DNA of 64,000 nucleotides from Eubacteriales bacterium. GTDB taxonomy: Bacteria; Bacillota; Clostridia; Oscillospirales; CAG-382. Position 1 is the first letter of the stretch. Every line of letters starts with the position of its first letter. Position numbers and translations under genes: made by a program. The notes under the pieces are model-generated. The model was not told where the DNA came from. It saw only the letters and a list, made by a program, of their open reading frames with translations, and did not search any database. This document shows, one piece after another, positions 39 through 32,369 of the stretch. The stretch spans positions 5,508-69,507 of the forward strand of contig JAZNMZ010000061.1 of NCBI GenBank assembly GCA_045580005.1. Direction: 5' to 3'.

Positions 39-239
39 ATGCAGGTCATAAGTGTTACCTCTCCCGAATTTCAGTACGGCGCATCGGACACCGTAGGTTA
101 TTTCGGGAAGATCGAACAGATACTCCCTTACAGCCAAGCACTCAAGGAGCAGTATGTTTCGGGAGATCTGAGCGAAACTCTTCGGGATAAGAAGTACAAT
201 GCTGCACTTGAATCAATAAGAGTAAAGGTGGTGAAGTAA
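39..239 (+). CDS. small hypothetical protein upstream of Tad-type ATPase
   Basis: 66-aa ORF with a GGAG-type RBS. Its stop abuts the next start (239/241). It has no hydrophobic segment, so it is not an Flp-type pilin. Confidence 0.4.
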   Translation: MQVISVTSPEFQYGASDTVGYFGKIEQILPYSQALKEQYVSGDLSETLRDKKYNAALESIRVKVVK

Positions 240-240
240 T

Positions 241-1551
241 ATGCAGATAAAAATGGAAGATCTGCTGACCAAAACGCAGGAGATGATATCCCGCAAATAC
301 CCATCCGTACTTACGGACATAACAAAGCGCGGCGAGATGAAGAACTATATCTCGCAATATCTCTATGATACCGGCTATTCCGTCAAGGGCATAACGCCAA
401 AGGCGACCGTTGACCGTCTCTATGCAGAGATGGCCGAATACTCGATCCTTACGCCGTTTTTGAGTGATCCGAATATAGAAGAGATCAATATAAACGGATG
501 GGATGACATCGCCCTGACCTTCCTTGACGGTCGTATAGTAAAAAGCGAGGAGACATTCTTCTCTCCGAGCCATGCAACGGATATTGTCAAAAAGCTGTTA
601 CAGCACTCGAATATGACCATAGACAATGCCTCGCCCAAAGCCGAGGGACACCTGCCGAACAATACCCGTATAACGGTACTCAAAACTCCAATAGTGGATG
701 AGGACAGAGGCATCGCGGCCTCCATCCGTATGCTCCATCCGAAAAGAGTGGACAGAGAAGCGCTCCTCGCTTGCGATTCATTGACCGAGGAGATGCTCTC
801 ATTTCTTGAAATGTGCCTGCGCTACGGTGTTTCCTTCGTCACCGCGGGACGAACGAGCTCGGGCAAGACGACGGTCAATAATGTCATTCTCTCGTCCCTC
901 CCGGATAATAAGAGAATATATACCATTGAAAACGGCGCGCGAGAGATATTTCTCGTGAAGCGCGATGAGACCGGAAGAGTGGTAAACAATGTGGTACACA
1001 CTCTTTCGAGACCTTCCGAAAAGAGCGGCTCCAATATAACGCAGGAGAGCCTTGTCGTCACATCCCTCCGTTTCGACCCGGATGTGATCTGTATCGGTGA
1101 GATGCGAGACAGTGAGGCAAGCTCCGCTATAGAGGCAAGCTCGACAGACCATACTGTAATAACGACGGTACACGGCGCGGGAGGCAAGCACGCGCACCAA
1201 AGGATCGCCTTTCTTGCGCTCAAGGGCATGAAGACCGATGACATTCATATCGCGCTTCAGCAGACGGCGCTTGCCTTTCCCGTAGTTGTATTCGCCCATA
1301 AGCTCGAGAATAATGCCCGCAAGATCATGGATATAACCGAGTGCGTAGTCCATGATGACGGCGAGCTCGAGTACCGCGTGCTTTACAGATATAAGATAAG
1401 AAGCAATATTTACCGCGACGGTCAGTTTACTATCGACGGTGAGTTCGTCAAGGAAAACATTATTTCGGACAGCCTTTGCGAGAAGCTGTTGCGCGGCGGT
1501 GTGCCGACACCTCTTCTTGAAGGCTTTATGAGAAAGGAGCTTATAGCATGA
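241..1551 (+). CDS. cpaF: CpaF/TadA-family type II/IV secretion (Tad pilus) ATPase
   Basis: 436 aa with Walker A GRTSSGKTT, Walker B-like DPDVICIGEMRDSEA and His-box TTVHGAG. Typical length for the family, and followed by two T2SS-F-like membrane proteins. Confidence 0.9.
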   Translation: MQIKMEDLLTKTQEMISRKYPSVLTDITKRGEMKNYISQYLYDTGYSVKGITPKATVDRLYAEMAEYSILTPFLSDPNIEEININGWDDIALTFLDGRIVKSEETFFSPSHATDIVKKLLQHSNMTIDNASPKAEGHLPNNTRITVLKTPIVDEDRGIAASIRMLHPKRVDREALLACDSLTEEMLSFLEMCLRYGVSFVTAGRTSSGKTTVNNVILSSLPDNKRIYTIENGAREIFLVKRDETGRVVNNVVHTLSRPSEKSGSNITQESLVVTSLRFDPDVICIGEMRDSEASSAIEASSTDHTVITTVHGAGGKHAHQRIAFLALKGMKTDDIHIALQQTALAFPVVVFAHKLENNARKIMDITECVVHDDGELEYRVLYRYKIRSNIYRDGQFTIDGEFVKENIISDSLCEKLLRGGVPTPLLEGFMRKELIA

Positions 1552-2474
1552 TTTTTATTCAGTTGATCGCCTTTGCGCTATGTGTTTTGGGCATCGTATG
1601 GGCGCTCGGACTTACTCCCGAACAGATAAATAAAGATCTGTCACTATTCTTGGAAAAACGGGAATCGCTTGAGGATATGTCAAAGATGGCGCGAGGAAAG
1701 AAGAAGCAGAACAAGCTCCTTCTTGAACTTTCACGCATACGCCGAATACTTACCGAAACGGGAAAGGAAAAGAGCTTTTCGGTAGCTCTTACAGTCTCCC
1801 TTATTCTCATGGTTATCGGATGTATAGCTGCTATCCTTATGGATAATATCTTTCTTGCGCCCGTTCTCGCCATGCTCTTTGCCATGATGCCCTTTATGTA
1901 CCTTATGCGAAGCGTGAACAGCTACAATAAGCATGTGAGAGAGGACCTTGAAATGTCGCTCTCGCTTATAACTACCGCATATATTGACTGCGATAACTTG
2001 AAAACGGCTGTCACGCAGTACGCCGACGATCTCCGACCGTCAATGAAGGGAATCTTCAAGGAATTTCTCGGAGAGGTTGAAACGATCTCACCGAATACGG
2101 AGGAAGCGATCTACCATATGAAGAATAAAGTAGATAACGCCATATTTCGCGAGTGGTGCGATCAGCTCGTAGCTTGTCAGAGCGACGGCGGACTTAAAGA
2201 TACTCTCCCCGCGATAGTTTCCAAACTGCGCGATGAAAGACTTGTAAACTCCGAGCTTCGCACAATGCTTTCCGAGGTGCGCCGCGAATACTACTTCATG
2301 GTCGCATTTGTTGTAGCCAATGTCCCGATACTTTATTGCATCAATAAGGATTGGTATAATGCGCTCATGCACACCGTATTCGGTAAGCTCGTTCTCGGAG
2401 TGACCGGTATAGTCATCCTTGTCACATGGCTTCGCGTAAATAAACAGACAAGACCCATCGAATACGGAGATTAA
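1548..2474 (+). CDS. tadB: TadB-like type II secretion system F-family membrane protein
   Basis: 308 aa, polytopic, with an N-terminal TM, a cytoplasmic helical domain and C-terminal TMs. ATGA overlap with cpaF indicates translational coupling. Confidence 0.7.
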   Translation: MIFIQLIAFALCVLGIVWALGLTPEQINKDLSLFLEKRESLEDMSKMARGKKKQNKLLLELSRIRRILTETGKEKSFSVALTVSLILMVIGCIAAILMDNIFLAPVLAMLFAMMPFMYLMRSVNSYNKHVREDLEMSLSLITTAYIDCDNLKTAVTQYADDLRPSMKGIFKEFLGEVETISPNTEEAIYHMKNKVDNAIFREWCDQLVACQSDGGLKDTLPAIVSKLRDERLVNSELRTMLSEVRREYYFMVAFVVANVPILYCINKDWYNALMHTVFGKLVLGVTGIVILVTWLRVNKQTRPIEYGD

Positions 2475-2478
2475 TGAC

Positions 2479-3354
2479 ATGATAATTATTCAATTCTTAA
2501 TAGGGATCATCTTCGCCGTAGGTGCGGGATGTATCCTTATGGATATCTTTAAGATACCCACTATGAAGGTCAGCCGTGCGACCCACAACCTCGGCAGAAA
2601 AGGAGACAAGAGAGCGGGTGCGATAACCATCTTTCTTGAAGGAGTTTCAACCGAGCTTGCCGGCAGGATAAAGCTCAATGAGTGGAAGTGCAAGGAGCTC
2701 CGCGAAGACCTTCTCGCCGCGGGCATGGGAGATATAACTCCAGAGCTTTTTACCGCGAGAGCATTGTCGAAGGCATTGGCGATCGGCATATTTGCAATTC
2801 CGGCATTCTTTGTATTTAAGATACTCGGTCTGCTTATAGCCGCCTTTGCCGTATTTGTCTACTTCGGCGAGACCAAAGGTATTACAAGTAAGATCAAGAA
2901 GAAAAGGGAAGCAATAGAGGCGGAGCTTCCGAGATTTGTATCTACCGTAAACAACAAACTCACGCATACGAGAGATGTGATTGCCATCCTTGATTCATAT
3001 AGATCAACGGCGGGTGAAGCACTCAAAGAAGAACTGACCATAACCGTCGCGGATATGAAAACGGGAAGTCAGAGCGAAGCACTTACAAGACTTGAACAGC
3101 GTGTAGGCTCGGCACTCTTAAGCGAAGTCACACTAAAACTCAAGGCAGTGATCGAGGGCAATTACAGCGAAGCGAGCTGGACGCTCCTCGCGGGAACATT
3201 TTCACAGCTTCAAAAGGATGAGCTTAAGAAGCGAGCAAACAGCATTCCGCGTAAGGTACGAAGAAATTCCATGTTTTTGCTTATCTGCTTTATCATGATA
3301 TATGTAGTTGTTCTCGGTCAGGTGCTTATGGATTCTCTCGGCGCTATCTTTTGA
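2479..3354 (+). CDS. tadC: TadC-like type II secretion system F-family membrane protein
   Basis: 291 aa with the same TM / helical / TM layout as the preceding gene. Position is canonical after tadB. Confidence 0.65.
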   Translation: MIIIQFLIGIIFAVGAGCILMDIFKIPTMKVSRATHNLGRKGDKRAGAITIFLEGVSTELAGRIKLNEWKCKELREDLLAAGMGDITPELFTARALSKALAIGIFAIPAFFVFKILGLLIAAFAVFVYFGETKGITSKIKKKREAIEAELPRFVSTVNNKLTHTRDVIAILDSYRSTAGEALKEELTITVADMKTGSQSEALTRLEQRVGSALLSEVTLKLKAVIEGNYSEASWTLLAGTFSQLQKDELKKRANSIPRKVRRNSMFLLICFIMIYVVVLGQVLMDSLGAIF

Positions 3355-3364
3355 GAGGTGAGAT

Positions 3365-3775
3365 ATGCTTAAATTATTGAAGAATAAAAAAGCGGAAGGC
3401 TATATAGATATTGCGGTAACGGTACTCGTTATCGTTTTTCTTTTGGTCTTTTCCGTGGGTATCTTTTCAAAGATAGCAGTAAAGCAGGATCTTACTCATA
3501 TGTGCCATGAGCTTGTTGAAGCCGCAACGGCGAGCGGGCGCATCGGGCCGGAGGTCGAGGAGCGCTTCGAGCAGTTATGCGCCGAGGCGGGATTTGTACC
3601 TAATGTATCATTCAGTGCGGTCTATTTTGATTCATCGAGCGGAAAGGTACAGCTTGGTGATGTAATAACCTGCACATTGACCTATTCCACCGAGCTTATG
3701 GGCTTCGGAGGATTCAGCTTACCCTTTGATGTGGAAGTAACCGAATCGGGTCTGTCCCGTATCTATTGGAAGTGA
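3365..3775 (+). CDS. pseudopilin-like / DUF4320-like Tad-associated protein
   Basis: 136 aa. A short basic N-terminus (MLKLLKNKKAEG) is followed by a hydrophobic helix (YIDIAVTVLVIVFLLVF), as in TadE/F-type minor pilins. Confidence 0.5.
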   Translation: MLKLLKNKKAEGYIDIAVTVLVIVFLLVFSVGIFSKIAVKQDLTHMCHELVEAATASGRIGPEVEERFEQLCAEAGFVPNVSFSAVYFDSSSGKVQLGDVITCTLTYSTELMGFGGFSLPFDVEVTESGLSRIYWK

Positions 3776-3782
3776 GGTAAAA

Positions 3783-4262
3783 ATGAAAAGATCAAAAGAA
3801 GTCTTGGGTAACAAGAAAGGCTCGTCCTATATCCCCGTATGTATATTCACTCTTATCGTGGCAATGGTCATAGGAATACTTTTGCAGTATGCCTTTGTTT
3901 ACAATGTCATAAGAAAGCAGAGAGTAAACATTCAGCTTACCCTCGACAGCTTCATTACAAAGGAAGCCATCGAGTATTACGATGCTTTGAAGCAGGGCGA
4001 GCCATACAGAAAGTATATCGATGAGACAGAGCTTGTCAGAGGCGCATATTCAAGCATCGGATTTTCGCAGGCAAGTATTACGGAATATACGGCTACGGAC
4101 AACAGCTTTACGATGTACCGCCCGACAATAACCGCGCTTGCGGAAGACAGCGTAGGCGTGTGCGCTGTCTATACTTTGTCCGTACCTTTCGAACTATGGG
4201 GCAGAAAGGTAGCGGATATAACTGTCCCCGTAGAGATAATATCAAAATTAACGGAAAGGTAA
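3783..4262 (+). CDS. N-terminally anchored Tad-locus protein (possible minor pilin)
   Basis: 159 aa with a basic N-terminus and a single hydrophobic helix (SYIPVCIFTLIVAMVIGILL). Lies in the same operon. Confidence 0.4.
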   Translation: MKRSKEVLGNKKGSSYIPVCIFTLIVAMVIGILLQYAFVYNVIRKQRVNIQLTLDSFITKEAIEYYDALKQGEPYRKYIDETELVRGAYSSIGFSQASITEYTATDNSFTMYRPTITALAEDSVGVCAVYTLSVPFELWGRKVADITVPVEIISKLTER

Positions 4263-4270
4263 GGTTGAAT

Positions 4271-4603
4271 ATGACAAATAAGAACAATAAGATCATTTTT
4301 GGTGTGTGCATCGCTCTCGTTTCTCTGATTGCGGGAGCGGCAGTTATCGGCATTGTAAGTAATCGCGAAGAAGCTACGTCGGATGCCGAAACAACGAATG
4401 CCGAAACAAGTGATACCGTGGATATTCCGAGTATCAAACCGAACGAGAACGAGAGCGGAGCATCCGCTGACCGCCCCGGGGAGCTTACCGTCGATGTTAT
4501 AGGTGCAAACGGTAATAACGAAAGACCCAAAGAGCCGACTATCGAAGGCGAGCCTTTTATCGTGGACGGAAGAAAGGAGGCGGTGACGGATGAAGTGGAG
4601 TAA
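4271..4603 (+). CDS. membrane-anchored low-complexity protein
   Basis: ATG at 4271 follows AAGGT. MTNKNNKIIFGVCIALVSLIAGAAVIGIV is a TM segment, followed by an acidic Ser/Thr/Glu-rich tail. The 3' end overlaps the adhesin start by 14 nt. Confidence 0.45.
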   Translation: MTNKNNKIIFGVCIALVSLIAGAAVIGIVSNREEATSDAETTNAETSDTVDIPSIKPNENESGASADRPGELTVDVIGANGNNERPKEPTIEGEPFIVDGRKEAVTDEVE

Positions 4604-7600
4604 ATTTATATCGGTATTTCTTGTTATCGTTACACTTCTTCCGCTTGTAGCTACCTGCGTTTCAGCAAGCGGATATGCCTTGAAGGTAACGATCTATTAC
4701 AAAAGCGAATCGGGCGATACGCTGGCCTCTACGGTAAGCACAACGATAAACGCCGCCGATTCCAATAAACCCTCTTGGACTTCGCCGAGCATAAGCGGGT
4801 ATTACCTTAAAAACAGTAGCGATGCGGTGGTGACTTACTCGATGCTGACTATTACCTCCTTGCCGACGAACTATATCCGCGAGGGCTCGGCGACATATAC
4901 CGTTTATTATGTTAAGGAAGCATCCAAAACAGTGAATTATGTGTATAACCACAATAACGCTACCGCCGCTCCCTCAAAGACACAGACGGGTAAGATCGGC
5001 GACAGTTATTCGATCACATCGCCTACTATTACCGGCTATACACCGTCGGCGGCGGTCATCTCGGGAACATTTACTTCAACTACCTCAACAAGTGTTGTCA
5101 GGTATGCCGAGAAGTCATATACCGTCTCCTTCAATGCAAACGGAGGAAGCGGCGCTCCATCAAGCGTGAAAAAGTATTACTTTACCACTCTCGTACTGCC
5201 TACGGATACGCCGGTAAGATACGGCTATTCCTTTCTCGGTTGGTCGGGATCAAGTACGGCAACGAGCGCGGGATATTCCCCCGGTGGCTCGTTTACGTTG
5301 AACAGAGATATAACTCTGTATGCGGTCTGGTCTACAAACACCTATGCCGTGACATATAACGGAAACGGAGGAAGCGGTGCACCGTCAACGCAATATAAGC
5401 AATTCAATGTTCCGCTTACCTTGAGTACAAAAGTTCCGACGAGGAGCGGGTATGTATTCAGCGGTTGGGCAAGAAGTGCAACGGGAAGTGTTGCGTTTCA
5501 GCCGGGCGATTCCTACACATCGAATTCAAAGATGAATCTTTACGCGATCTGGACGGCGGCTCCCAAGCAATATACAGTATCGTATAACGCAAACGGCGGT
5601 TCGGGCGCGCCCTCGAGTCAGACAAAGACGGAGGGCGTGGCGCTTACGCTTTCAAGCACCAAACCCACAAGGAGTGGTTACACCTTCCTCGGCTGGGGAA
5701 CAAGCTCAAGCGCAACAGTTGCATCATATTCGGCAGGCGGTACTTACACATCCGATGCAAGTATAACGCTTTATGCTGTATGGAGTAAGATCCCCTCAAC
5801 TTATACCGTTTCATATAATGCGAACGGCGGCTCGGGCGCTCCCTCCTCGCAGACAAAGACCGAAAATGTAACGCTTACTCTTTCGTCCACTAAACCCACA
5901 AGGAGTGGTTATACCTTCCTCGGATGGGGCACAAGCAGTTCGGCAACTACCGCTGCATATTCTGCGGGCGGAAGCTATACGGCCAATGCAAGTATAACCC
6001 TTTATGCCGTATGGAGCAAGAATGTATCATACTATACGGTATCGTATAATGCAAACGGCGGATCAGGTGCGCCATCCGCACAGACCAAGACCGAAAATGT
6101 AACGCTTACTCTTTCGAGCACAAAGCCGACAAGAAGCGGCTATACCTTCCTTGGCTGGAGCTCGAGCAGTTCGGCGACCTCGCCCACATATTATGCGGGC
6201 GGCTCATATACGGCAAACGCAAGCGTGACACTTTATGCCGTTTGGAGTAAGGTACTTTCCACTTATACCGTATCGTATAATGCAAATGGAGGCTCGGGTG
6301 CTCCATCAAGTCAGACAAAGACAGAGGGCGCGGCTCTTACTCTTTCGAGTACCGTCCCAAGTAGGAGCGGCTACACCTTCCTCGGTTGGGGAACGAGCTC
6401 ATCGTCCACCTCGCCCTCTTATTCCGCCGGAGGAAGCTATACCATCGATGCGAGTATTACACTCTATGCTGTATGGAGTAAGAATACTTCGTACTATACC
6501 GTATCTTACAGTTCAAATGGAGGCAGCGGCGCACCTCTGTCGCAGACCAAGACCGAAGATGTACCGCTTACACTTTCAAGCACGAAGCCTACAAGAAGCG
6601 GCTACACCTTTCTCGGTTGGGGAACGAGCAGTTCTGCAACTTCGCCCTCATATTACCCCGGCGGAACTTATACCGCAAATGCAAGTATAACACTATACGC
6701 CGTGTGGAGCAAGGTTCTTTCGACTTATACCGTTTCTTACAATGCCAACGGCGGCTCGGGCGCACCGTCCGCGCAGACAAAGACGGAGGGTGTGGCACTT
6801 ACTCTTTCGAGTACAGTTCCTTTCCGAAGTGGATACTCATTTCTCGGTTGGGGAACAAGTTCATCATCTACCTCGCCTTCATATTCCGCGGGAGGTACTT
6901 ACACTGCCGATGCAAGTATTACGCTTTATGCTGTGTGGAGTAAAAACACTTCGTATTATACCGTTTCCTATAGCGCAAACGGAGGCAGCGGTGCACCGCT
7001 GGCACAGACCAAGACCGAAAATGTGGCGCTCACTCTCTCATCTCAAGAGCCTACAAGATCGGGCTACACTTTCCTCGGTTGGAGTTCGAACAGTTCCGCA
7101 ACCTCGCCTACCTACTACCCCGGAGGCACTTATACCGCAAATGCAAGCATAACCCTTTATGCTGTATGGAGCAAGATACTTTCGACTTATACCATATCGT
7201 ATAACGCCAACGGCGGCTCCGGCGCTCCATCAAGTCAGACAAAGACCGAAGGTGTAGCGCTTACTCTCTCGAGTACGATTCCTTTCCGAAGCGGATACTC
7301 CTTTCTCGGATGGGGAACGAGTTCCTCGTCTACTTCGCCTTCATATTCCGCGGGAGGAAGCTATACTGCCGATGCAAGCATTACCTTCTATGCCGTGTGG
7401 AGCAAGAACAATTCGTATTATACCGTTTCCTACAGCGCAAACGGAGGCAGCGGAGCACCTTTGGCACAGACCAAGACCGAGAATGTAGCGCTCACTCTTT
7501 CAAGCACCACTCCGACAAGAAGCGGTTACACCTTCCTCGGATGGGGAACGAGCAGTTCTTCAACATCGCCGTCCTACTATCCCGGAGGTATTTATACTGC

Positions 7601-10064
7601 AAACGCGAGTATAACACTTTATGCCGTTTGGAGTAAGATACTTTCCACTTATACCGTATCGTATAACGCAAATGGCGGCTCGGGTGCACCTTCAAGTCAG
7701 ACAAAGACCGAAGGTGTAGCTCTTACACTTTCGAGTACAAAGCCTACTCGGAGCGGTTACAGCTTCCTCGGCTGGGGAACAAGCTCGTCATCTACCTCGC
7801 CATCGTATTCATCCGGAGGTACTTATATCGCCGACGCAAGCATAACTCTTTATGCTATATGGAGTAAGAACGCCTCATATTATACCGTTTCCTACAGCGC
7901 AAACGGAGGAAGCGGTGCTCCCTCCGCGCAGACCAAGAACGAAAATGTGGCGCTTACGCTTTCAAGCACCAAGCCGACAAGATCGGGCTATACCTTCCTC
8001 GGTTGGAGCTCGAGCAGTTCCGCAACTTCTCCGACATACTATGCGGGCGGTACTTATACCGCCAATGCAAGCGTAACTCTTTATGCGGTATGGAGCAGAA
8101 ATGTATCATACTATGCGGTAAACTACTATGCAAACGGCGGCAGTGGAGCGCCCGAGGCGCAGGTGAAGATCGAGGATGTCGCGCTTACACTTTCATCGAT
8201 CTCTCCCTACAGAAGCGGATATATCTTTTCCGGTTGGGCAACAAGCTCAACTTCATCTGTTATTTCTTACTATCCCGGAAGCACCTTCAGCGGAAATTAC
8301 AGCCTTGATCTCTATGCGGTATGGCAAAGGAGTCTTGCTTCCTATACCGTAAATTATGATGCAAACGGCGGAAGCGGAGCTCCGTCCTCTCAAACAAAAA
8401 TAGAAGACACAGTGCTGACACTTTCGTCTACCAAGCCTACAAGGAGCGGCTACACCTTCCTCGGTTGGAGCTCGAGCAGTTCGGCAACTTCGCCCACTTA
8501 TTATGCGGGCGGCACCTATACCGCAAATGCAAGCATAACTCTCTATGCGGTATGGTCGCGTATAACTTATACCGTAAGCTATGATGCCAACGGAGGTAGC
8601 GGTGCGCCGTTCTCGCAGATCAAGTATTACGGTCAAGTATTGACCATAAGCAACACAGTCCCAACAAGAGATGGCTATACCTTTCTCGGATGGTCGGAAT
8701 CCTCATCGGCCGCATCGCCCTCATACTATGCGGGCGGTCAGTTCGGAGACGACCGCTCTGTGACCTTATATGCCGTATGGCAGGAGCACAACTACGATTT
8801 TTCAATATCCGCTCTCGAAGTCACTCCCGATACAGTTACACAGTATGAGACCGTCAATATTCGCTTCCGCATAGATAGCTGGGACGAATACAATAACTAT
8901 TCGGATATCCCCGTTGAGGTGCTCTTGAACGGTACCCAAATATATTATACCACCGTGTATATCTACGCTTACGGTGTGAAGTATATAGAATTCAACCTCA
9001 ATGTCGGCGAGATCGAAGGAATGCAGAGTCTTGTTGCGCGAGTGAATTGGGTGGATCACCACAATGAAACAAGAACGGGAAACAACTCGGTTTCCGCAAC
9101 ATTTACCGTTAAGAAAGCTATTGAAACTTCGGTAGATCAGACGGGCTTGAGCGGAGAATACATCGAGGGATTCGATGTCATTTCAAGTTTCTATGTGAGA
9201 AATGAGGGAAGCTCGGATGTTACGCCCGATGACGGAGTTACCTTTACGCTCAAAGTCTACTCTACTGCCGAGACGGTATTTGAGGGAACAAAGACAGTTG
9301 TGATCCCTGCGGGAGGTACAAATATAGTCTATTTCAAATGGACAGTACCCGAAAACAGCGCGGGAACGGTATATTGGTGTCGCGGCACTATATCCGAAAG
9401 TACGGGCGATGGAAACACGGATAATAATTCTACCGAGTTTTCAATAGTATCTGCTTCGCTTCCGAGCTCAACTACACCTAACACAAGATATGAGGAAAAA
9501 GCTCCCGCGACCTATGATCCGATGGTTACGCCTCCTTCCGATAAAGCCGGCTCGGCTTCATGGAATGAGTGGGTATATGAAAATGATTCATTTGTTCTCA
9601 AGACCTACGGCATAACCGTTTCGGGCGGCAATCCTATGCTTACACCGAGTGCAGGATGCAAGACGGCGGTCAAGGACGGAAGTCTGTGGAAGCTCGGTTC
9701 GGGTTACGGTGTATCGCTTTCATGGACACCCGTTATAATCTCATCGGGCGTATCCACACCATCGCGCGATTCATATACCGAGGCTCAATCCGTGTATGCG
9801 ACCTTTCCCGAATATGCATATGTGCTCGCGCAGAATAAATATGACACTCTCGATGATGTCGCAGGAACATTCATGTTCAAGCCCAACCCCGATGCTGACA
9901 ACACCGAAAGAGTACACTTTATACCGCTTTATGTCAAGGACGGACTGTACAGCGTATCTGTTTCCGCATCGTATATCTGGACACCTGCGGGCATGGTCAC
10001 GGCAACTAAAAGTGCATCGGTTATTATACGCGGAACAATGTATGACGATTGGTATCAAGGATGA
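4590..10064 (+). CDS. giant secreted adhesin with Listeria-Bacteroides (Flg_new/InlB-B-type) repeats and C-terminal CARDB-like domains
   Basis: 1824 aa. The RBS AAAGGAGG lies 9 nt upstream and the signal peptide is MKWSKFISVFLVIVTLLPLVATCVSASG. I counted 16 units carrying NGGSGAP...L(T/S)..P.R.GY.F.GW...LYAVW. These are followed by Ig-like/CARDB-like segments, and no LPXTG motif is present. Confidence 0.9.
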   Translation: MKWSKFISVFLVIVTLLPLVATCVSASGYALKVTIYYKSESGDTLASTVSTTINAADSNKPSWTSPSISGYYLKNSSDAVVTYSMLTITSLPTNYIREGSATYTVYYVKEASKTVNYVYNHNNATAAPSKTQTGKIGDSYSITSPTITGYTPSAAVISGTFTSTTSTSVVRYAEKSYTVSFNANGGSGAPSSVKKYYFTTLVLPTDTPVRYGYSFLGWSGSSTATSAGYSPGGSFTLNRDITLYAVWSTNTYAVTYNGNGGSGAPSTQYKQFNVPLTLSTKVPTRSGYVFSGWARSATGSVAFQPGDSYTSNSKMNLYAIWTAAPKQYTVSYNANGGSGAPSSQTKTEGVALTLSSTKPTRSGYTFLGWGTSSSATVASYSAGGTYTSDASITLYAVWSKIPSTYTVSYNANGGSGAPSSQTKTENVTLTLSSTKPTRSGYTFLGWGTSSSATTAAYSAGGSYTANASITLYAVWSKNVSYYTVSYNANGGSGAPSAQTKTENVTLTLSSTKPTRSGYTFLGWSSSSSATSPTYYAGGSYTANASVTLYAVWSKVLSTYTVSYNANGGSGAPSSQTKTEGAALTLSSTVPSRSGYTFLGWGTSSSSTSPSYSAGGSYTIDASITLYAVWSKNTSYYTVSYSSNGGSGAPLSQTKTEDVPLTLSSTKPTRSGYTFLGWGTSSSATSPSYYPGGTYTANASITLYAVWSKVLSTYTVSYNANGGSGAPSAQTKTEGVALTLSSTVPFRSGYSFLGWGTSSSSTSPSYSAGGTYTADASITLYAVWSKNTSYYTVSYSANGGSGAPLAQTKTENVALTLSSQEPTRSGYTFLGWSSNSSATSPTYYPGGTYTANASITLYAVWSKILSTYTISYNANGGSGAPSSQTKTEGVALTLSSTIPFRSGYSFLGWGTSSSSTSPSYSAGGSYTADASITFYAVWSKNNSYYTVSYSANGGSGAPLAQTKTENVALTLSSTTPTRSGYTFLGWGTSSSSTSPSYYPGGIYTANASITLYAVWSKILSTYTVSYNANGGSGAPSSQTKTEGVALTLSSTKPTRSGYSFLGWGTSSSSTSPSYSSGGTYIADASITLYAIWSKNASYYTVSYSANGGSGAPSAQTKNENVALTLSSTKPTRSGYTFLGWSSSSSATSPTYYAGGTYTANASVTLYAVWSRNVSYYAVNYYANGGSGAPEAQVKIEDVALTLSSISPYRSGYIFSGWATSSTSSVISYYPGSTFSGNYSLDLYAVWQRSLASYTVNYDANGGSGAPSSQTKIEDTVLTLSSTKPTRSGYTFLGWSSSSSATSPTYYAGGTYTANASITLYAVWSRITYTVSYDANGGSGAPFSQIKYYGQVLTISNTVPTRDGYTFLGWSESSSAASPSYYAGGQFGDDRSVTLYAVWQEHNYDFSISALEVTPDTVTQYETVNIRFRIDSWDEYNNYSDIPVEVLLNGTQIYYTTVYIYAYGVKYIEFNLNVGEIEGMQSLVARVNWVDHHNETRTGNNSVSATFTVKKAIETSVDQTGLSGEYIEGFDVISSFYVRNEGSSDVTPDDGVTFTLKVYSTAETVFEGTKTVVIPAGGTNIVYFKWTVPENSAGTVYWCRGTISESTGDGNTDNNSTEFSIVSASLPSSTTPNTRYEEKAPATYDPMVTPPSDKAGSASWNEWVYENDSFVLKTYGITVSGGNPMLTPSAGCKTAVKDGSLWKLGSGYGVSLSWTPVIISSGVSTPSRDSYTEAQSVYATFPEYAYVLAQNKYDTLDDVAGTFMFKPNPDADNTERVHFIPLYVKDGLYSVSVSASYIWTPAGMVTATKSASVIIRGTMYDDWYQG
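5113..8785 (+). repeat. in-frame tandem repeat array (unit ~231 nt / 77 aa, with a 462-nt two-unit super-repeat in the centre)
   Basis: 16 units are visible in the translation. Off-frame shadow ORFs recur at multiples of 231 nt, for example 6617 vs 7310 and 6106 vs 7492. Units alternate between an SSQTKTEG/SYSAGG type and an LAQTKTEN/TYYPGG type. Confidence 0.9.
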
Positions 10065-10094: not shown

Positions 10095-10319
10095 ATGGCT
10101 ACTGTACACAACGGACACATTAATATCCTTCGCAAGCTCATTAAGCTCGGGTACACGGATAAGAAAGCGATAACCTCGCTCACTATATACGATGTTCTTA
10201 AGCTCCATCTCTCAAAGGGAGAGATGGAGAGCGTGTGTGAACTCATGGATGCCGTGAGAGATAACGACCTGCTCACATTCTTTATTGACAGCAGAGGAGT
10301 GGAAAGCGATGAAGCTTGA
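10095..10319 (+). CDS. small hypothetical protein
   Basis: 74-aa ORF whose stop overlaps the start of the next ORF. No recognisable motif. Confidence 0.45.
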   Translation: MATVHNGHINILRKLIKLGYTDKKAITSLTIYDVLKLHLSKGEMESVCELMDAVRDNDLLTFFIDSRGVESDEA

Positions 10320-11016
10320 AAGTCTTGCCATTTGGGATGAGAAAGAACTTTTTGAAGAATCCCGCGGATCGGACAAGGGATACAGAGGATATGCAAAATA
10401 TATCTTTGAGGGCGAGGGAATAACCCTCCGCGCAGATCGTATGAAGTTCATATCCATCGAGGAGCAGAGAGAGCTTGAGGAACTTTTTATCTTCCTCAAG
10501 AAGCCCGAGGCGGGATTCCTTCTTCGCAGTCTTGCGGATATGACCGTATGTTGCGAGGACAAAATGAACGATCACATCCCCTATTCATTCGACAGAGAAT
10601 GCTACGGATTCCGCGTTATAGGGGACGGTATTACTTGGTATATCTCCTGCACCGTCTGGAACGAAAGATGTCACTTTACGATTTATGCTTACGGCAGAGA
10701 AGCGATCAGAAAGCATCTTGCCGGAAAGCGCGGACTTCCCGATTTCTGTCACGGTATTTATCCCTTTACGGGCGAGCAGATAACGATCTGTTTTGGGGAG
10801 CGGAGCTTTCTCCGCTTCCCGCAGTTCGGCGGAAATGTAAGTGTGAACGAGCAGAGAGTAAACGAAGAAAATAAGCGCCTCAAGGTGACAAAGGCACAAC
10901 GGTCTGCTATGGAAAACGGCATCATTTACGGTTGGGACACGCCCGCCGCTAAAGTTGAGAATTATGACAGCGAGGGACGTTACTGTCCCGAAGAAAAGGA
11001 GGGAAAAAGAAAGTGA
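10309..11016 (+). CDS. hypothetical conjugative-element protein
   Basis: ATG at 10309 lies 10 nt after GAGGAG (the ORF track starts it at TTG 10285). About 235 aa, Cys/His-containing, with no family recognised. Confidence 0.5.
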   Translation: MKLESLAIWDEKELFEESRGSDKGYRGYAKYIFEGEGITLRADRMKFISIEEQRELEELFIFLKKPEAGFLLRSLADMTVCCEDKMNDHIPYSFDRECYGFRVIGDGITWYISCTVWNERCHFTIYAYGREAIRKHLAGKRGLPDFCHGIYPFTGEQITICFGERSFLRFPQFGGNVSVNEQRVNEENKRLKVTKAQRSAMENGIIYGWDTPAAKVENYDSEGRYCPEEKEGKRK

Positions 11017-11041: not shown

Positions 11042-14000
11042 TTGAGAAAAATAGATGTTGTAACCGAGCTTTACAACAGAACATTGAAGGAGCTTACCTC
11101 AAGCCCTCGCGCATGGACGGATTTTCTTCATACTGCGGCGTATCAGTACAAGTATTCGTTTTCGGATCAAGTGCTGATCCATGCACAGCGCCCCGGCGCG
11201 ATAGCCTGCGCGGAGCTTGAGGTGTGGAACAGATTCGGAAGATGGGTAAACAGAGGATCGCATGGCATTGCGCTAATAAGGGAGCGTGGCAGCCGCTCAT
11301 CCCTTACCCATGTTTTCGATCTCAAGGATACACATCACAGAGACGATGTCCCCTTTAACATTTGGGATGCAACTCCCGAAACCTATAGCGATATTTCGGA
11401 AGCACTTGAAAACAGATTCGGACACCTGCCGAAAAGGGACTCATTTGAGAATGCCGTTATCTCTGCCTGCGATAATATCTGCGAGGATAATTATACCGAC
11501 TACTTGGAGAATCTTAAGATGTCCGTCGAGGGCAGTTTTCTTGACGGTTATGACGAAGATAATCTCCGTGTAAATTTTCTGCCCATCCTTAAGTACAGCA
11601 CCGCATATTCGGTACTGACCCGACTCGGATACAGAGGTGAGGACAGCTTGGATAAGGAAGATCTCGCTCCCTTGCGCGAGTTTAACACATCCGATGTTAT
11701 CAACATTCTCGGTACTGCATCTGCCGATCTATCGGAACTTTGCTTGCGAGAGATCGAGCGCACAGTTCGAGCATATGAGAAAAACAAAAATCGCACACTT
11801 GCGGCAAATGAAAATGTGCGGTATAATGATTCCGAAAATTCAAAAAATCATGAAAAAGGAGAAAAAGACAATGAGCATCGAGAAAATGCTGAATTACAAG
11901 GCGGACGGGGAAGTTCTGATCCCCGACCTCAAGCTGCCCGAACAGACGAACTATCCCCTCGGGAAGTACGCGAAAATGAGACTCGAATTTCTCAAGAAGC
12001 ATCGCAGGGGAACTTACACGACGCTCGTGACTCAGGCGAAGCTGAACGAGCATCTTCACGAGATCGAGGAAGCGGCGAAGATGCAGATCTCCGAGAGCAT
12101 ATTACAGATGGCACAGAGCCTTGGCGTGACGGAACAGATGAAAGCGGCAGATCAGATGAAGTGGGTACAGATGATGAGCAGCATCAAGCATTCGGCAGAG
12201 GAGGAAGTTTTGAAGAGCTTGATCTACGCTTGAGCGATGAAGATGACCCTTACTACTATGACGGCAAAGGGGTAGATCCCAAATATCTCGATACAGAAGT
12301 AAAGGGCGACAAACCAATGCCCGACGAGCACACAATGATACTCATATTAAGACACGGTGACTACCTGCGTAAGAGCAAGGAAGAAATCGTGTCTTTTTTG
12401 AATTCCGAAGAAGATGAAGCCAAGCGAGCCGTCTTCGTAAGAAAGGCATATGAGATGGGACTTACGGGCGAGTTTTATCGCCCCGGAACAAAGGAATATC
12501 TCGGTTATCATGTAGAGCCGAGCGGACTTCTTATGTATGAAGGACACTTTTCGAACAATACGACAGAGATCAAATTCACATGGCAGCTTGTAGCCGATCT
12601 CATTCACGCTCTTGCAAAAGACGGTAAGTATCTTGATGAGCCGAAAGAGAAGATATCGCTATCGCCGTCGGAGATTGAAGGTGCATCGCTTAAGATCATC
12701 GAGAAACCCGCCGTCAAAACGCGAAATGAATTCACTTTTCCACAGTCCACCATCGACGAGTTCATCCGTATCGGCGGTTGCACGAGAAAAAGCACGGAGC
12801 GAATTTACGGTTATTACCGCAGAGCAAATGATACCGCGGAGAATATTCAATTTTTGAGAGAAGAATATGAAACCGATAATGTAGGACTTGTCATTGACGG
12901 TCGTAAAATGGCGGCTTCTTGGAATGACGAAGGAGTTACTATCGCCGAGGGCGAGAAAGTGGCCGGTGCTTGGCGAACGGTATTTCTCACTTGGGAGGAT
13001 GTGGACAAACGGACACGCGAGCTCATAGAGCTCGGACAGTATATTTCGAGGGCTCAAGCGCAAACGGCAGAATCTATCTATGATGAGTCTGTAGCAAATA
13101 AGATAGCCGATCTGTATAGATATTATTTTAGTGACTTGCCGGATGAAAATAAAACCGCTTCAAGATTTGTTTGGCCGGAAATAACGGATTTTTATACAGA
13201 TATACTTCATGACTTTGATAAAGCGGAAGCTTTGTGCAATGAAATGGAGCGGAATATTAAAATCAAGGAGTCTCGAAACGCAAAGTATGCAAATATTAAT
13301 TCCCCAAGATATGTTCTGATGTTGGCCCGACAGTATTTGAGGGAGCCTATTGAGTTCAAAGAGGCCGATGAGTATTTATTACCGCAGAAGTTTTATATTA
13401 CTCAAGATAGGATAATGAGCGTTCTTGCGGGACATCATCCGATCAGCGAAGGTAAATTCCGCGTATATTCCTTCTTCCTTAAAAACAAGGATAATAAAAG
13501 CAGGGCGGATTTTTTGAAGAAGGAATACGGCATCGGCGGCAGTTATGACAGCAGAGTGAATAAGGAGTACAACAGCAAGGGACTTTGTATAGGGTATAGC
13601 AGTATTTTTGTAAATGAAAAAGTGCTGCTGAAATGGACTGATGTTGCAAAAAGGATCGATACCCTCATCCGAGAAGATAAATACTTGAGCAAGGAGGAAC
13701 AAAACCTTCTTGATTGGTATGAGAAATGCCAGATCGCAAGTGCTATTCAAGGCTTTTACAGTAATCGCGGAATAGATGTAGAACGTCCGTATAAATATGA
13801 TGACAAAGCATTTTTTGAGGATAAGAGAAAGGAGCTTCTTTCTCAAATAGATGCCCCCGAAAGGCTTGCGGAGATCTACAAAATGATGTGCGATGTTTTT
13901 GAAACAGACACTCCGGATTCATATAACTATAACTATTATAAAGAGTGCTTGAAGGATGTGAGGGAATATGTAGCAGGGACTTACAACTTGTTTCCTTTTT

Positions 14001-17000
14001 CTCATTACCGCAGGAAGGCCGTTGAAAAAGCAGAAGCATCTACGGAGGAAGTCGCTGAAGAAGATCCCGCGATTGACATTGATCTTGACTCGCTTGACTA
14101 TGATATAAGGCTCGGCACATGGGTCTATATAGACAATGATGAGCTTATCATACAGTCTATAACGAGTGAGGGCGTTGAGCTTGATGACGGCTCGATCTTT
14201 CCTGTAGAGCTTTCCTTTGATGAATTTCTTGAAAAGCTCCGCTCCAACCCCAAGAACGATCACTTGAAAAAGAGTGAAAATGTTGAGGTACTCGACGAGC
14301 CCGACCCTTCGAAAGAGAACACCGAGGCGTCCGAAAAGACAGACGAACTTGAAAGAGCAAAGCATCTTATTAACGATTACAGTATGTCTGAATTCGGATA
14401 TGAAGATACCTTTGAAGATCTTCATTCTATCGGTATCGGATATACCACAACAGAGGATGATGAGATATCCATTCAAGTCGAAGCCGACCTCATAGATTTC
14501 AATGTTAAGGTCTATCTCGGCGAAGATCTTGTCGTTACAAGGCAGTACGGATCTCTAAAAGAGCTTAACGATGTTGAACTTGAAAATCTTGATTTTGATT
14601 CTCTTATCTATATTGATGACGAGATCATAGAGGAATACAAGCGGAAACATGTAACTGAAACCGAGATCCCTGCAATGCAGGAAGCACCAAAGCCTATTGC
14701 CAAACGCGCGGGTGTTAAGTTTCATCCCGAGGTGGATGACGAGGACAGACTCGATCACAAGATCGACGCAAAGGATTTACCTTTGCGTGTGCCGAGCGAT
14801 AAATACAGTCGCAATATTCGAGCTATTCGCCTGCTTCATACCCTTGATGAGGAAAACAGACTTGCTACGGAAAGTGAGCAAAAGCTCCTCGCAGATTACA
14901 GCGGATGGGGAGGTCTTGCAAATTGCTTTGATGAAGGTAACTCAAACTATGAGGAGCTTAAGTCGCTTCTTACCTATGAGGAATATAAAGCGGCAAGAGA
15001 ATCGACATTGACTGCATTCTACACACCGCCCGTTGTTATCCAAGCGATATACAAAGCGCTCGCCAATATGGGATTTACTCGAGGCAATATCCTCGAGCCT
15101 TCCTGCGGTGTCGGTAACTTTATGGGACTTTTGCCCGAAAGCATGAGCGAAAGCAGAATATACGGTGTTGAGCTTGACGGTCTTTCGGGTAGGATCGCGC
15201 AACAGCTTTATCAAAAACAAAATATAACCATCGGCGGTTTTGAAGAAACGGTATTTCCCGACAGCTTCTTTGATGTCGCTGTCGGTAATGTTCCTTTCGG
15301 ACAGTTCAAGGTCGGGGATAGGAAGTATGATAAGTTCAACTTCCTTATTCACGACTATTTTTTTGCCAAAGCTCTTGACAAGGTTCGACCGGGCGGAGTA
15401 GTTGCTTTCATAACTTCAAAGGGAACTATGGACAAGGAAAATCCCGCAGTAAGAAAGTATATCGCGCAGAGAGCGGAGCTTATAGGCGCTATTCGCTTGC
15501 CAGACAATGCTTTCAAGAGTGCGGGAACAGAGGTCGTTTCGGATATCATCTTCCTACAAAAGAGAGACAGAGTGATCGAAACCGAGCCCGATTGGGTGCA
15601 TCTCGGTCAAGATGCAAACGGCATACCAATGAATCAATACTTCGTGGATAACCCCGAAATGATACTCGGAGATATTGTTATGCGTTCAGGCCCATACGGC
15701 CCCGAACCGACATGCAAGGCTTACGAAGGGCATGACCTCGGTGAACTCCTTTCGGAAGCAGTAAGCAATATTCATGCCGAAATATCCGAGGCGGATATAG
15801 CCGAGCTTGAAGAAGATCCGAACAGCATTCCCGCTGACCCCAATGTAAAGAACTACTCATACACCATCGTAGATGGCAATGTTTATTTCCGTCAGGACAG
15901 CGTTATGAGTAAGGTCGAAACATCTGTCACGGGAGAGAATCGCATAAAGGGCATGATAGGCATAAGAGACACCGTTCGCGAACTTATCGATGCTCAACTT
16001 AAAGATCTTCCCGATTATACCATAACGGGACTTCGGGAAAAGCTCAATTCACAATACGATGCTTTTACCGCGAAGTACGGCCTTATAAACAGCAGGGGTA
16101 ACGAGTCTGCATTTGAGGATGACAGCTCATATTTCCTCCTTTCCTCGCTTGAAATACTTAACGAAGATAAAGGGCTTGAGCGCAAGGCGGATATGTTCAC
16201 CAAGCGCACGATCAAGCCCTATGTTAAGATCGAACATGTCGATCTCGCGAGTGAAGCGCTCGCGGTATCACTTTCCGAAAAGGCAGGCATAGATATTGAA
16301 TTTATGTCCGTACTTACGGGCAAGACGGAGGATGAAATATATGAGGAGCTTAAGGGCGTTATCTTCCTAAATCCCGAAGAAAGTGCCATTTTGAACAAGC
16401 CTAAATACCTTACCGCCGATGAGTACCTCTCGGGCAATGTTCGCGAAAAACTCGCAAGAGCAAGACGAATGGTAGATGAAGGCTTTGAGGAATATTCGGT
16501 CAATGTAGATGCTCTTGAGGCAATTCAACCCAAAGATCTGACCGCGGCCGAGATCGGTATCAAACTCGGAGCAACATGGATACCACCCGAAATAATAAAG
16601 CAATTCGTGTTTGACCTTTTGTCAACTCCTTCGTGGGCAAGGTGGCACATTGATGTTAAATATCTCCCGCAGACTGCTCAATGGTTCATTACCGAAAAGT
16701 CGAGGGACGACGACAATGTTCGAGCCTTGACCGTTTACGGAACGAGCCGTGTCAACGCATATGAGATCATCGAGGAAACTCTGAATCTCAAAGATGTAAG
16801 GGTACTTGATAAGAAGCTATGCAATGACGGAGTCGAGCGGTATGTATTAAACAAGAAGGAAACCACGGTAGCACAGGGCAAGCAGGAGGAGATCAAACGC
16901 GCCTTTGAGGAGTGGGCGTGGAAAGACCCCGAGAGGCGTGAAAAGCTCTGCAAGCTTTACAATGAAAAGTTCAATTCCACAAGACCGCGTACTTATGACG

Positions 17001-21171: not shown

Positions 21172-21179
21172 GGCGGTAA

Positions 21180-24460: not shown

Positions 24461-24675
24461 AAAAGTACAAGGTAACGATTACAGAAATTCTTAAAAAGAC
24501 AGTCGAAGTCGATGCGGAAGATTATACAGAAGCAGTTGAAACTGTTGAAAGCGCATACTTTCAAGAGCAAATAATTCTGACCGCCGACGACTATTCCGGC
24601 AGCAATTTTGATGCCGAGGAGATACCTGCACAGACCGAAAAGACGGTGAAAAATCGTAAGGATTTTTCACGATAA
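24457..24675 (+). CDS. DpnD/PcfM-like small protein
   Basis: 72 aa. MKKYKVTITEILKKTVEVDAEDYTEAVETVE..ILTADDY resembles the PcfM/DpnD family. ATGA overlap with the previous gene. Confidence 0.55.
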   Translation: MKKYKVTITEILKKTVEVDAEDYTEAVETVESAYFQEQIILTADDYSGSNFDAEEIPAQTEKTVKNRKDFSR

Positions 24676-24777: not shown

Positions 24778-24796
24778 TGACTATGAAAGGAGAAAC

Positions 24797-27388: not shown

Positions 27389-27404
27389 CAGAAAGGAAAA
27401 CACC

Positions 27405-31456: not shown

Positions 31457-31522
31457 AGAATAATCACAAGCAAAAGCCATTCGCAAATGTCGAATGGCTT
31501 TTTGCATTGGAAAGGAGAACAA

Positions 31523-32359: not shown

Positions 32360-32369
32360 GGAGAAGTAC

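Follow-up and report, generated by a model that had tools for sequence, protein, structure and literature searches.

Conjugative elements that encode their own type IV pili are established in Gram-negative bacteria, with R64, TP114 and PAPI-1 as known examples, and such pili promote mating there (PMC9045228, PMC12857230). Gram-positive conjugation, by contrast, is described in reviews as using surface adhesins, not pili (PMC4027160), and a comprehensive review of type IV secretion systems (T4SSs) from December 2025 treats pilus–T4SS hybrids for Gram-negatives only (PMC12857230). Also already known, besides the Gram-positive adhesins themselves, is a tad locus on linear, putatively conjugative plasmids of Cutibacterium acnes (p15.1.R1 and pIMPLE-HL096PA1), which lies beside VirB4-, TcpC- and FtsK-like genes and whose pilin has been detected on the cell surface (PMC5696575). 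Here, we describe a 64,000-nucleotide (nt) stretch of Clostridia DNA (contig JAZNMZ010000061.1 of assembly GCA_045580005.1, positions 5,508 to 69,507; the whole stretch is called the window below) in which genes for a Tad-type pilus and a giant repeat adhesin directly precede the transfer genes of a conjugative element. Specifically, window positions 1–10064 cover the distal two-thirds of a monoderm-type Tad (type IVc-like) pilus block, which is complete once the sequence upstream of the window is included. There is good support for the Tad-plus-adhesin module as a unit in both its anatomy and its evolution; with respect to function, we consider it an even chance that it serves as a donor-cell attachment device that promotes mating-pair formation.

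In the literature, we found no paper on a Tad module in Firmicutes conjugative elements and none containing the terms 'DUF4320' or 'DUF6133', two of the families that make up the pilus described here. Pili are likewise not mentioned in a paper on the pCS1 conjugation locus or in a survey of extrachromosomal elements of Clostridioides difficile. A study of a TANB77 pilin was considered as a precedent and set aside, as the Tad locus it describes is a different one, located on the chromosome and encoding a fused TadBC.

The Tad pilus block

All genes of the block are present on the + strand at the positions collected in Table 1, within one unbroken run of genes that spans bases 1–11016. The ATPase gene overlaps the gene for the first platform protein by 4 nt (241–1551/1548–2474), the next four junctions are gaps of 4, 10, 7 and 8 nt, and the last small gene overlaps the adhesin gene by 14 nt (4271–4603/4590–10064), so that the tight coupling described in the initial annotation is confirmed junction by junction. 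Similar spacing continues 3′ of the adhesin, with a gap of 30 nt to a gene for 74 residues, an overlap of 11 nt to the gene for 235 residues (p235) and a gap of 25 nt to the gene for a 2839-residue polyvalent protein. No terminator-like site was found between + strand genes of this run, in terminator and promoter scans that did no better than on shuffled sequence. Judged by gene spacing alone, the block is probably co-transcribed.

The remaining third of the block lies 5′ of the window. The exact ATPase sequence (241–1551) was found on 17 public contigs, and three NCBI assemblies are 99.99–100% identical to window positions 1–11551 and 99.96–99.98% identical to each other over ~16.9 kb. The upstream order in the identical contigs is parB, two small genes, three DUF6133 genes (67–76 residues), an A24 peptidase (197–198 residues), an RcpC/SAF protein and a P-loop protein. 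These contigs bear out the earlier guess that pilins and a prepilin peptidase would lie 5′ of position 1. The peptidase has a weak precomputed Pfam match to Peptidase_A24 and a visible GGADIK motif, and its gene in plasmid relatives is named 'prepilin peptidase' or 'A24 family peptidase' by the NCBI annotation pipeline (PGAP); the CpaB/RcpC protein combines RcpC and SAF domains in 252 residues. The open reading frame at 39–239, listed at first as a gene in its own right, proved to be the tail of the 249-residue P-loop protein, the frame of which is open from base 3. Its gene starts ~510 nt 5′ of the window and is complete in one of the contigs (L003, 4842–5591). The assignment of this protein as TadZ/CpaE-like is by position and P-loop only; it has no Pfam match, and the PGAP name of a plasmid homologue is 'AAA family ATPase'.

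The same block recurs widely. An alignment scan of 185,579 species genomes with the CpaF-like ATPase gave 147 relatives, and 80 loci with 54–77% CpaF identity were taken, all from Clostridia metagenome-assembled genomes (MAGs) of gut, rumen and faecal origin save four MAGs with non-Clostridia labels. Pilin, A24 peptidase, RcpC and TadZ genes occur together in 56 of the 57 loci with room for them, and an adhesin follows the minor pilins in 45 of 49. The window ATPase has its best NCBIfam matches to FlaI, VirB11 and TadA, all under the equivalog cut-offs; among these weak matches is TIGR03819, which links a TadA clade to actinobacterial conjugal transfer. Its homologues fall into more than 2871 clusters, one of which is named 'CpaF family protein'. 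We rejected the possibility that this gene encodes the VirB11 of a T4SS, because pilin, peptidase and platform genes flank the ATPase in every locus.

With respect to the two platform proteins, neither matches Pfam T2SSF, or any Pfam family, even at E ≤ 10, and PDB sequence profiles also gave no match. Nonetheless, the two families are paralogous (hhalign probability 78%, E 1.7e-5), and the six best PDB fold matches to an AlphaFold2 (AF2) model of the TadB-like protein (predicted local distance difference test score, pLDDT, 68.6) are all cytoplasmic domains, from PilC (the N-domain), OutF and EpsF, with target-normalised template-modelling scores of 0.71–0.74 and probabilities of 0.87–1.0 but E-values of only 0.39–3.5. 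Two homologues of the TadB-like protein are called 'TadB' ('Flp pilus assembly protein TadB') by the Joint Genome Institute, and a plasmid homologue of the TadC-like protein (on pTPHSE1, see below) is called 'secretion protein F' by PGAP. The original tadB/tadC assignment, and with it the GspF/PilC fold expected of such a pair, thus stands on paralogy, fold and source annotations, while sequence models fail to recognise it.

The putative major pilins of family DUF6133 occur in one to five tandem copies per locus. They have a leader of ~28 residues, then (A/G)EG followed by YIDT(A/G)VKIIIGVVVG, and a mature part of ~46–48 residues, predicted to begin at the Tyr that follows EG, which is Flp-like in size. 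Their motif differs from the G/XXXXEY of Flp, with an acidic residue at +3 and Tyr at +1 instead of E+5/Y+6. A prepilin motif of the form K-K-A/G-E-G, then Y-I/V-D, is common to the DUF6133, DUF4320 and 159-residue families across ~60 loci; relatives of the 159-residue protein, the gene for which is found in nearly all loci, read NKKGFSY(I/V)LTCV or KRGEGY(I/V)STCV. No Pfam TadE match was obtained for the minor pilins. These motifs point to one family of major and two of minor pilins, for which the A24 peptidase is the presumed processing enzyme. Three genes of the window had been called pseudopilin-like; two of them (3365–3775 and 3783–4262) carry the prepilin-type motif, and the third (4271–4603) lacks it and encodes a bitopic membrane protein instead. 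This type of protein (98–269 residues) stands directly before the adhesin in 46 of 48 loci examined and is absent from a locus in which the adhesin is absent (L033), such that bitopic protein and adhesin appear to come and go together. Four loci (L033, L034, L052 and L092) have Tad genes and minor pilins with the adhesin missing, and L033 has no room for a bitopic protein.

Neither a secretin (RcpA/CpaC) nor TadD was found in any of the 80 loci, which is expected in monoderm hosts and is no argument against a monoderm Tad system. Taken together, the presence of a CpaF/TadA ATPase, a short A24 peptidase and CpaB/RcpC and TadZ/CpaE accessory proteins, along with the platform pair and the pilins, gives the full parts list of the Tad-type pilus set that had been proposed from the window alone.

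Table 1. Positions of the block, the adhesin and the transfer genes in the window
Feature	Position	Strand	Basis or remark
TadZ/CpaE-like P-loop protein (GTPQSGKT), last 79 of 249 codons	1..239	+	frame open from base 3; full gene in identical contigs
CpaF/TadA-family secretion ATPase, 436 aa	241..1551	+	Pfam T2SSE 2e-23
TadB-like platform protein, 308 aa, polytopic	1548..2474	+	paralogy, AF2 fold, JGI homologue names
TadC-like platform protein, 291 aa, polytopic	2479..3354	+	hhalign to TadB-like family; homologue annotation
Minor pilin 1 (putative), 136 aa, DUF4320	3365..3775	+	Pfam DUF4320 5.9e-27; short leader, KKAEG/YIDIAV, hydrophobic helix
Minor pilin 2 (putative), 159 aa, no Pfam family	3783..4262	+	leader, KKGSSYIPV, hydrophobic helix
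Bitopic membrane protein, 110 aa	4271..4603	+	N-terminal transmembrane helix, acidic Thr/Pro-rich linker
Adhesin head, residues 1-176	4590..5117	+	Sec signal peptide + MucBP-like domain
Adhesin stalk, residues 177-1399	5118..8786	+	16 tandem 77-aa Flg_new (Listeria-Bacteroides) repeats
Adhesin base, residues 1400-1824 + stop codon	8787..10064	+	two CARDB/DUF8194-like beta-sandwiches + DUF8195
Two small backbone genes: 74 aa; 235 aa (p235, cytoplasmic, Cys-rich)	10095..11016	+	
Polyvalent protein, 2839 aa: ArdC-N-like N-terminus, methylase, SNF2 helicase	11042..19561	+	Pfam
DNA-processing module: DUF3991/Toprim, NikA-like, MobA/VirD2 relaxase, DUF3801, ArdC-N-like protein, VirD4	23465..30375	+	
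Mating-channel genes: VirB6-like (TrbL_2, weak), PrgI (VirB3-like), VirB4, 361-aa membrane protein	31487..36099	+	

The adhesin, its slot and the conjugative backbone

The last gene of the block encodes an adhesin of 1824 residues, to which Pfam assigns MucBP (3e-08) at residues 114–172 and Flg_new (1.5e-220) in 16 stretches, behind a Sec-type signal peptide that we read by eye at approximately residues 1–27. Its C-terminus, which ends in WTPAGM...YDDWYQG (terminal residues IIRGTMYDDWYQG), lacks an LPXTG-like motif, a transmembrane helix and any known wall-binding repeat, in line with its initial description as a non-LPXTG adhesin. The same features extend to the 44 Tad-linked adhesins compared: none carries a sorting signal, every complete one starts with an ordinary Sec-type signal peptide and not a prepilin leader, and the C-terminal WTPAGM...YDDWY motif is near-invariant, with conservative variants, over lengths of 866–1824 residues. 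The conserved part is the base, the last 425 residues (DUF8194/CARDB-like plus DUF8195), which AF2 models as all-beta sandwiches (pLDDT 82). Since its fold matches in the PDB are generic Ig/MG-domain arrays only (complement C3, transglutaminase, ICAM), no function can be read from the fold. An exhaustive search places the base module in 604 clusters at 50% identity, and in the full-length proteins listed (430–2472 residues) it sits at the extreme C-terminus. Base identity among relatives is 39–64%, and the MucBP head is replaced in the divergent ones. Such a pattern fits a binding head that varies, carried on a stalk and anchored through a base that is conserved.

Several further observations concern the adhesin gene itself. 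The stalk (5118–8786) consists of 231-bp DNA copies that are 72–81% identical, and contigs of one public sequencing run contain joints within this array (skips of 127 nt and 762 nt and a back-step of 201 nt); the copy number of Flg_new may vary, or short-read assemblies may mis-join the array. In two related loci (L182/L183), the adhesin is encoded in two pieces, of 333 and 384 residues. The most distant homologue of the base (L181, 10001–11632; 28% identity) is a 543-residue DUF8193-8194-8195 protein in another integrase-bearing element, lying ~8 kb 5′ of a ParA gene, a pair of ParB genes and the genes for an A24 peptidase and RcpC, and not 3′ of minor pilins.

The block is co-inherited with transfer genes. 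Its gene order is shared by at least 80 Clostridia genomes at species level, as well as by plasmids from cultured Terrisporobacter and Clostridioides, and it does not belong to a single backbone. On the backbone type of this window, parB precedes the block and p235 and the polyvalent protein follow it. On a second type (L009–L014), the block runs directly into a PrgI-like gene and VirB4, and its left flank consists of varying chromosomal genes; a PrgI-like gene and VirB4 also stand directly 3′ of the block in L025 and L037. Elsewhere, VirB4 lies upstream of the pilins (L032), or the block is followed by Toprim, NikA and relaxase genes (L052) or by DUF3852, TrbL and VirB4 (L182/L183, where a Phd/ParE pair is inserted between CpaF and TadB). 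Gene neighbourhoods of the genome loci were read to ±10 kb, and within this distance 18 of the 46 loci of at least 15 kb have a hard conjugation marker and 7 have parB or p235 only.

Among plasmids in PLSDB, 10 carry a CpaF relative, and 8 of these also carry the adhesin base. On the circular 48.9-kb plasmid pTPHSE1 of Terrisporobacter petrolearius (NZ_CP154620.1), the Tad genes run directly into VirD4, which is followed by a pLS20_p028-type membrane protein, a VirB4-sized protein, a C40 peptidase and a MobP2 relaxase; the circular C. difficile plasmid LIBA6289 (NZ_MF547664.1) is arranged similarly, and pHSJD-312 (MG973074) is a further CpaF match. The plasmid relatives thus have a C40 or NlpC/P60 hydrolase beside the Tad block. 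MOB-suite typing in PLSDB labels 9 of the 10 plasmids 'non-mobilizable' despite their VirD4, VirB4-like and relaxase genes, which exposes a gap in typing. The co-occurrence of a Tad block with VirB4 and VirD4 that the initial annotation had asked of related elements is therefore seen on several backbones as well as on circular plasmids.

In the window itself, the transfer genes first recognised 3′ of the block are all confirmed: the relaxase (PF03432, 8e-32), VirD4 (T4SS-DNA_transf, 8e-62), VirB4 (P-loop_TraG, 1.7e-19) and PrgI (5e-33) by clear Pfam matches, and the VirB6-like protein by a weak one (TrbL_2, 8.6e-4 in our own scan and unmarked in precomputed hits). One element accordingly holds a VirB4 ATPase, a VirD4 coupling protein and a relaxase. 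We found no integrase or att site between the adhesin and these genes, and the backbone from parB through the polyvalent protein to Toprim, NikA and relaxase is collinear in relatives, so the block lies inside the conjugative element, as first proposed, and is not separated from the transfer genes by an element boundary.

A comparison of relatives of this backbone shows that the block occupies a defined slot. The polyvalent protein is a backbone marker for which alignment found 579 metagenome relatives, and a metagenome scan by its N-terminus gave 57 relatives whose upstream sequence extends for at least 5 kb. Only 5 of them have Tad or adhesin genes upstream, whereas 41 have parB at 2–9 kb and no Tad, and 11 have neither in the sequence available. 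The 74-residue and p235 genes come after the slot in Tad-bearing and Tad-less relatives alike. In the four Tad-less relatives examined (L118, L121, L122 and L126), the slot between parB and p235/polyvalent protein is filled by a lipoprotein of ~230 residues and a Sec-exported surface adhesin of 1426–1695 residues, with 9–12 SpaA domains in all four and a thioester domain (TED) in three. The three TED-bearing adhesins end in (N/T)PKTG, a transmembrane helix and a K-rich tail, and the fourth, without a recognised TED, ends in VPKTG, a transmembrane helix and a shorter mixed basic tail; by these C-termini, all four look sortase-anchored. Efficient transfer of pLS20 depends on a TED adhesin encoded in its conjugation operon, with an effect of ~1000-fold in liquid medium and of 15-fold on solid medium (PMC8092201). 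Because the TED-SpaA adhesin class in the slot is one that acts in pLS20 conjugation, two different solutions to surface attachment alternate in one slot of one element family.

The ends of the element are less sharply marked. To the left of parB in the identical contigs are a terminator-like hairpin, a tRNA-Asn with a duplicated 5′ half, 5S genes, a tRNA-Lys and the 3′ end of a 23S gene, which places the element in the chromosome beside an rRNA operon, and this location is why assemblies break left of it. Two of the contigs have the full tRNA-Asn (L001, 927–1130; L002, 551–754), with a copy of its first ~49 nt 125 nt upstream, and the sequence 5′ of this partial copy varies among assemblies; the copy may be the scar of an attachment site. 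The 3′ part of the tRNA-Asn is not repeated within the window, which contains no tRNA genes. On the right, channel genes stop after VirB4 and the 361-residue membrane protein, where the G+C content falls from 46% to 35% (~36.1 kb), and a tyrosine integrase (36256–37194) behind a near-consensus promoter-like site opens the low-G+C stretch. No direct repeat of at least 13 nt ties this junction to another part of the window. The stretch (36100–50300) may represent either the end of the element itself or an island distinct from it; it includes a transglutaminase-core/Ig-like protein, a holin, ricin-lectin proteins, an extracytoplasmic function-type sigma factor and a 986-residue Amidase_6 protein.

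Within the backbone, a RelB/ParE toxin–antitoxin pair (30738–31456) lies between VirD4, with a small membrane protein, and the VirB6-like gene. The region at 19760–23325 holds an AAA_14/DUF4143 ATPase behind the region's best promoter-like site (19690–19718) and a Y-family DNA polymerase (IMS) on the opposite strand, which breaks an otherwise one-strand element. Beyond the low-G+C stretch, the minus strand encodes a BlaR1-type M56 sensor peptidase and a BlaI/Penicillinase_R repressor (50424–52439 and 52818–53195), adjoined by a fragment of an IS66-family transposase, and a row comprising a MazF/PemK toxin, a DUF6551 protein and an SMC_N/AAA_21 ATPase (58390–61803) may be a defence or addiction cluster.

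Possible roles of the module

The observed gene content, motifs, platform fold, synteny, modularity and co-inheritance with transfer genes are consistent with a device by which donor cells attach to others. In such a mechanism, donor cells would assemble a thin fibre, and the adhesin, having no wall anchor, would be held by its conserved base. The base might dock on a minor-pilin complex at the fibre tip, in the manner of PilY1 on type IVa pili, or the bitopic protein might tether the adhesin; display on the fibre is our working hypothesis. Fibre and adhesin would then catch other cells or shared surfaces, making it more probable that the neighbouring VirB4/VirD4 channel forms a mating pair. 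The strongest argument for such service in mating-pair formation is the exchange of the module, in its slot, for a TED-SpaA adhesin.

Several observations weigh against this reading. With only 5 of 57 backbone relatives carrying it, the module is optional and dispensable for the backbone, and it is therefore not essential for transfer. No T4SS or relaxase gene lies within ±10 kb in 21 of the 46 long loci; two of these were scanned with Pfam, of which L070 showed genes typical of mobile elements (orphan methylases, LPD28, YodL/DUF3846 and YpsA) and L046 a Dam-type methylase. The element may also not be self-transmissible, as its channel genes end at an integrase and low-G+C DNA and neither a VirB1-like hydrolase nor a VirB8-like protein was recognised between 28.5 and 36.1 kb. 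There is no PilT-like gene and a single ATPase in the block, so any retraction of the fibre is hypothetical. Support from RNA is limited to one metatranscriptome, the sparse, short contigs of which (100% identical, over 1690–8426) are too thin to show an operon. Finally, the MucBP head would suit binding to host mucus as well as to bacteria.

This last point leads to the main rival of the mating device, namely that pilus and adhesin are colonisation cargo that attaches the host bacterium to mucus, epithelium, plant fibre or biofilm matrix, with the element serving as a vehicle. Besides the head, the Listeria-Bacteroides repeats, the origin of the carriers from gut, rumen and faeces, the optional nature of the module, the many long loci with no T4SS gene nearby and the wide variation of heads and stalk lengths (866–1824 residues) all fit such a role. 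A host-serving role in colonisation has reportedly been proposed for the Tad pili of Bifidobacterium breve, and the tad locus of the C. acnes plasmids has been interpreted as serving adhesion to the host (PMC5696575). The position of the block is harder to reconcile with cargo: it occupies a fixed slot and not a variable cargo region, on the transfer strand and with gaps of at most 30 nt to backbone genes; on several backbones it lies inside or abuts the channel gene cluster; Tad-less relatives fill the slot with an adhesin class known to act in conjugation; and wherever flanks are recognisable, the block is among mobile-element genes. We regard the cargo reading as less probable than the mating device, although it is the strongest of the alternatives. 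Mating and colonisation are not mutually exclusive, and a dual role, by analogy with PrgB, is possible.

A less probable alternative is that the intact module is an inactive passenger on a decaying, immobile remnant and has no current role in transfer. The early end of the channel cluster after VirB4 and the 361-residue protein, the integrase with its own promoter-like site followed by the drop in G+C, the recurrence of this ~36.1-kb junction in every contig with an identical VirB4 and the RelB/ParE pair between VirD4 and the VirB6-like gene could each be taken as signs of decay. However, all genes of the block are open at full length and identical in assemblies from several samples, and the element recurs in many gut metagenomes of different studies with word identities of 100% or close to it, which suggests recent spread; the integrase, moreover, may be the element's own.

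We consider it very improbable that the pilus handles DNA, whether by uptake, as Tad pili do in the transformation of Micrococcus luteus, or through a PAPI-1-like hybrid route with VirB4/VirD4. In favour are the precedents for both (PMC5696575, PMC12857230), and no VirB1-like hydrolase or VirB8-like protein was recognised beside VirB4 in the window. Nevertheless, plasmid relatives have full pLS20-like channel sets, including the C40 or NlpC/P60 hydrolase, beside the Tad block, most backbone relatives encode transfer genes and no Tad, no ComEA/ComEC-type genes were seen in the block, and a giant adhesin would be unexpected for DNA uptake. The initial suggestion that the adhesin is secreted through the Tad apparatus in the style of a type II secretion system (T2SS), which drew on the adjacency of the genes, their 14-nt overlap and the kinship of T2SS and Tad machines (PMC6668835), is very unlikely to hold: Sec export makes the Tad machine unnecessary for secretion of an adhesin with no prepilin leader, a monoderm host has no secretin and no second membrane to cross, and up to five tandem pilin genes favour a real fibre.

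Returning to the mating device, its most far-reaching form, which we put forward tentatively and hold to be somewhat less probable than not, is that Gram-positive gut elements possess a true 'sex pilus' of Tad type, possibly retractile and tipped by an exchangeable adhesin on a DUF8195 base. If so, the fibre would serve to reach distant recipients, with their range governed by the adhesin head, and sortase-anchored TED adhesins and Tad-plus-adhesin modules would be interchangeable in one slot. A pilus module that is widespread and built into the conjugative elements of Clostridia would qualify the statement that Gram-positives use adhesins and not pili. It would also bear on gene flow in the gut, where it is poorly understood how the elements of dominant bacteria find recipients in a fluid, crowded habitat, a matter with consequences for how resistance and metabolic genes spread. 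A role is also proposed for three families that had been uncharacterised (DUF6133, DUF4320 and DUF8195). Handles for further work are the prepilin motif (EG, then YID) and the candidate docking domain DUF8195, and cultured hosts bearing plasmids with the module exist, with Terrisporobacter petrolearius, Oscillospiraceae MB08-C2-2 and Subdoligranulum variabile among the non-pathogenic ones.

Comparison with known systems

With the canonical loci (Aggregatibacter tad, Caulobacter cpa and B. breve tad), the block shares the CpaF/TadA ATPase, the TadB/TadC pair, a short A24 peptidase, CpaB/RcpC and a TadZ/CpaE-like ATPase, together with two putative minor pilins and a pilin of very small size that has a long leader. 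It differs in its pilin motif, EG then YIDT(A/G)V in place of G/XXXXEY, in the use of DUF6133 and DUF4320 instead of the Flp and TadE families, in a platform too divergent for Pfam T2SSF, in the lack of a secretin and TadD, and in being carried by a mobile element and linked to a giant adhesin. PilY1/PilC-type tip adhesins are large, Sec-exported non-pilin proteins that are encoded beside minor pilins and dock on a minor-pilin complex. The adhesin described here has no sequence or fold similarity to them, as its base is built of Ig-like beta-sandwiches and not of a beta-propeller. Unlike sortase-anchored MSCRAMM and TIE adhesins, it also lacks a C-terminal LPXTG-type motif, transmembrane helix and positive tail.

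Among Gram-positive elements, the C. acnes plasmids come close in pairing a tad locus with transfer genes; their locus is regarded mainly as a host-adhesion factor, with a possible link to DNA transfer raised in discussion (PMC5696575). These plasmids have an actinobacterial host, a giant DUF8195 adhesin has not been reported for them, and none of them is among the PLSDB tblastn matches to the CpaF-like ATPase at E ≤ 1e-30. The TIE adhesin of pLS20 and PrgB of pCF10 are, as here, donor-encoded adhesins with genes in the conjugation region, and theirs promote mating-pair formation; the pLS20 adhesin is also without a sorting signal, its anchoring being unknown (PMC8092201). Those systems have no pilus machinery, and their TED and polymer-adhesin domains are unrelated to MucBP, Flg_new and DUF8195.

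Among Gram-negative elements, those of PAPI-1/ICEclc type likewise combine a type IV pilus of their own with VirB4/VirD4 (PMC12857230), but that pilus is essential, whereas the module described here is optional. Another parallel is offered by the thin pilus of R64 (IncI1) and TP114 (IncI2), which is also a type IV-filament cluster on a conjugative element, located beside the T4SS and separate from it, and likewise accessory rather than essential. Recipient specificity depends on its variable PilV adhesins, which are important both in liquid and in the gut (PMC9045228, PMC3548315, PMC12857230). The IncI pilus is of type IVb, in Gram-negative hosts with a secretin, and its adhesin is a minor pilin varied by a shufflon; the module described here is of Tad type, in monoderm hosts with neither secretin nor shufflon, and its Sec-exported, non-pilin adhesin is varied by replacement of head and stalk. 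The IncI thin pilus would therefore be a functional analogue only, in which a type IV filament and a changeable adhesin accompany a separate transfer channel.

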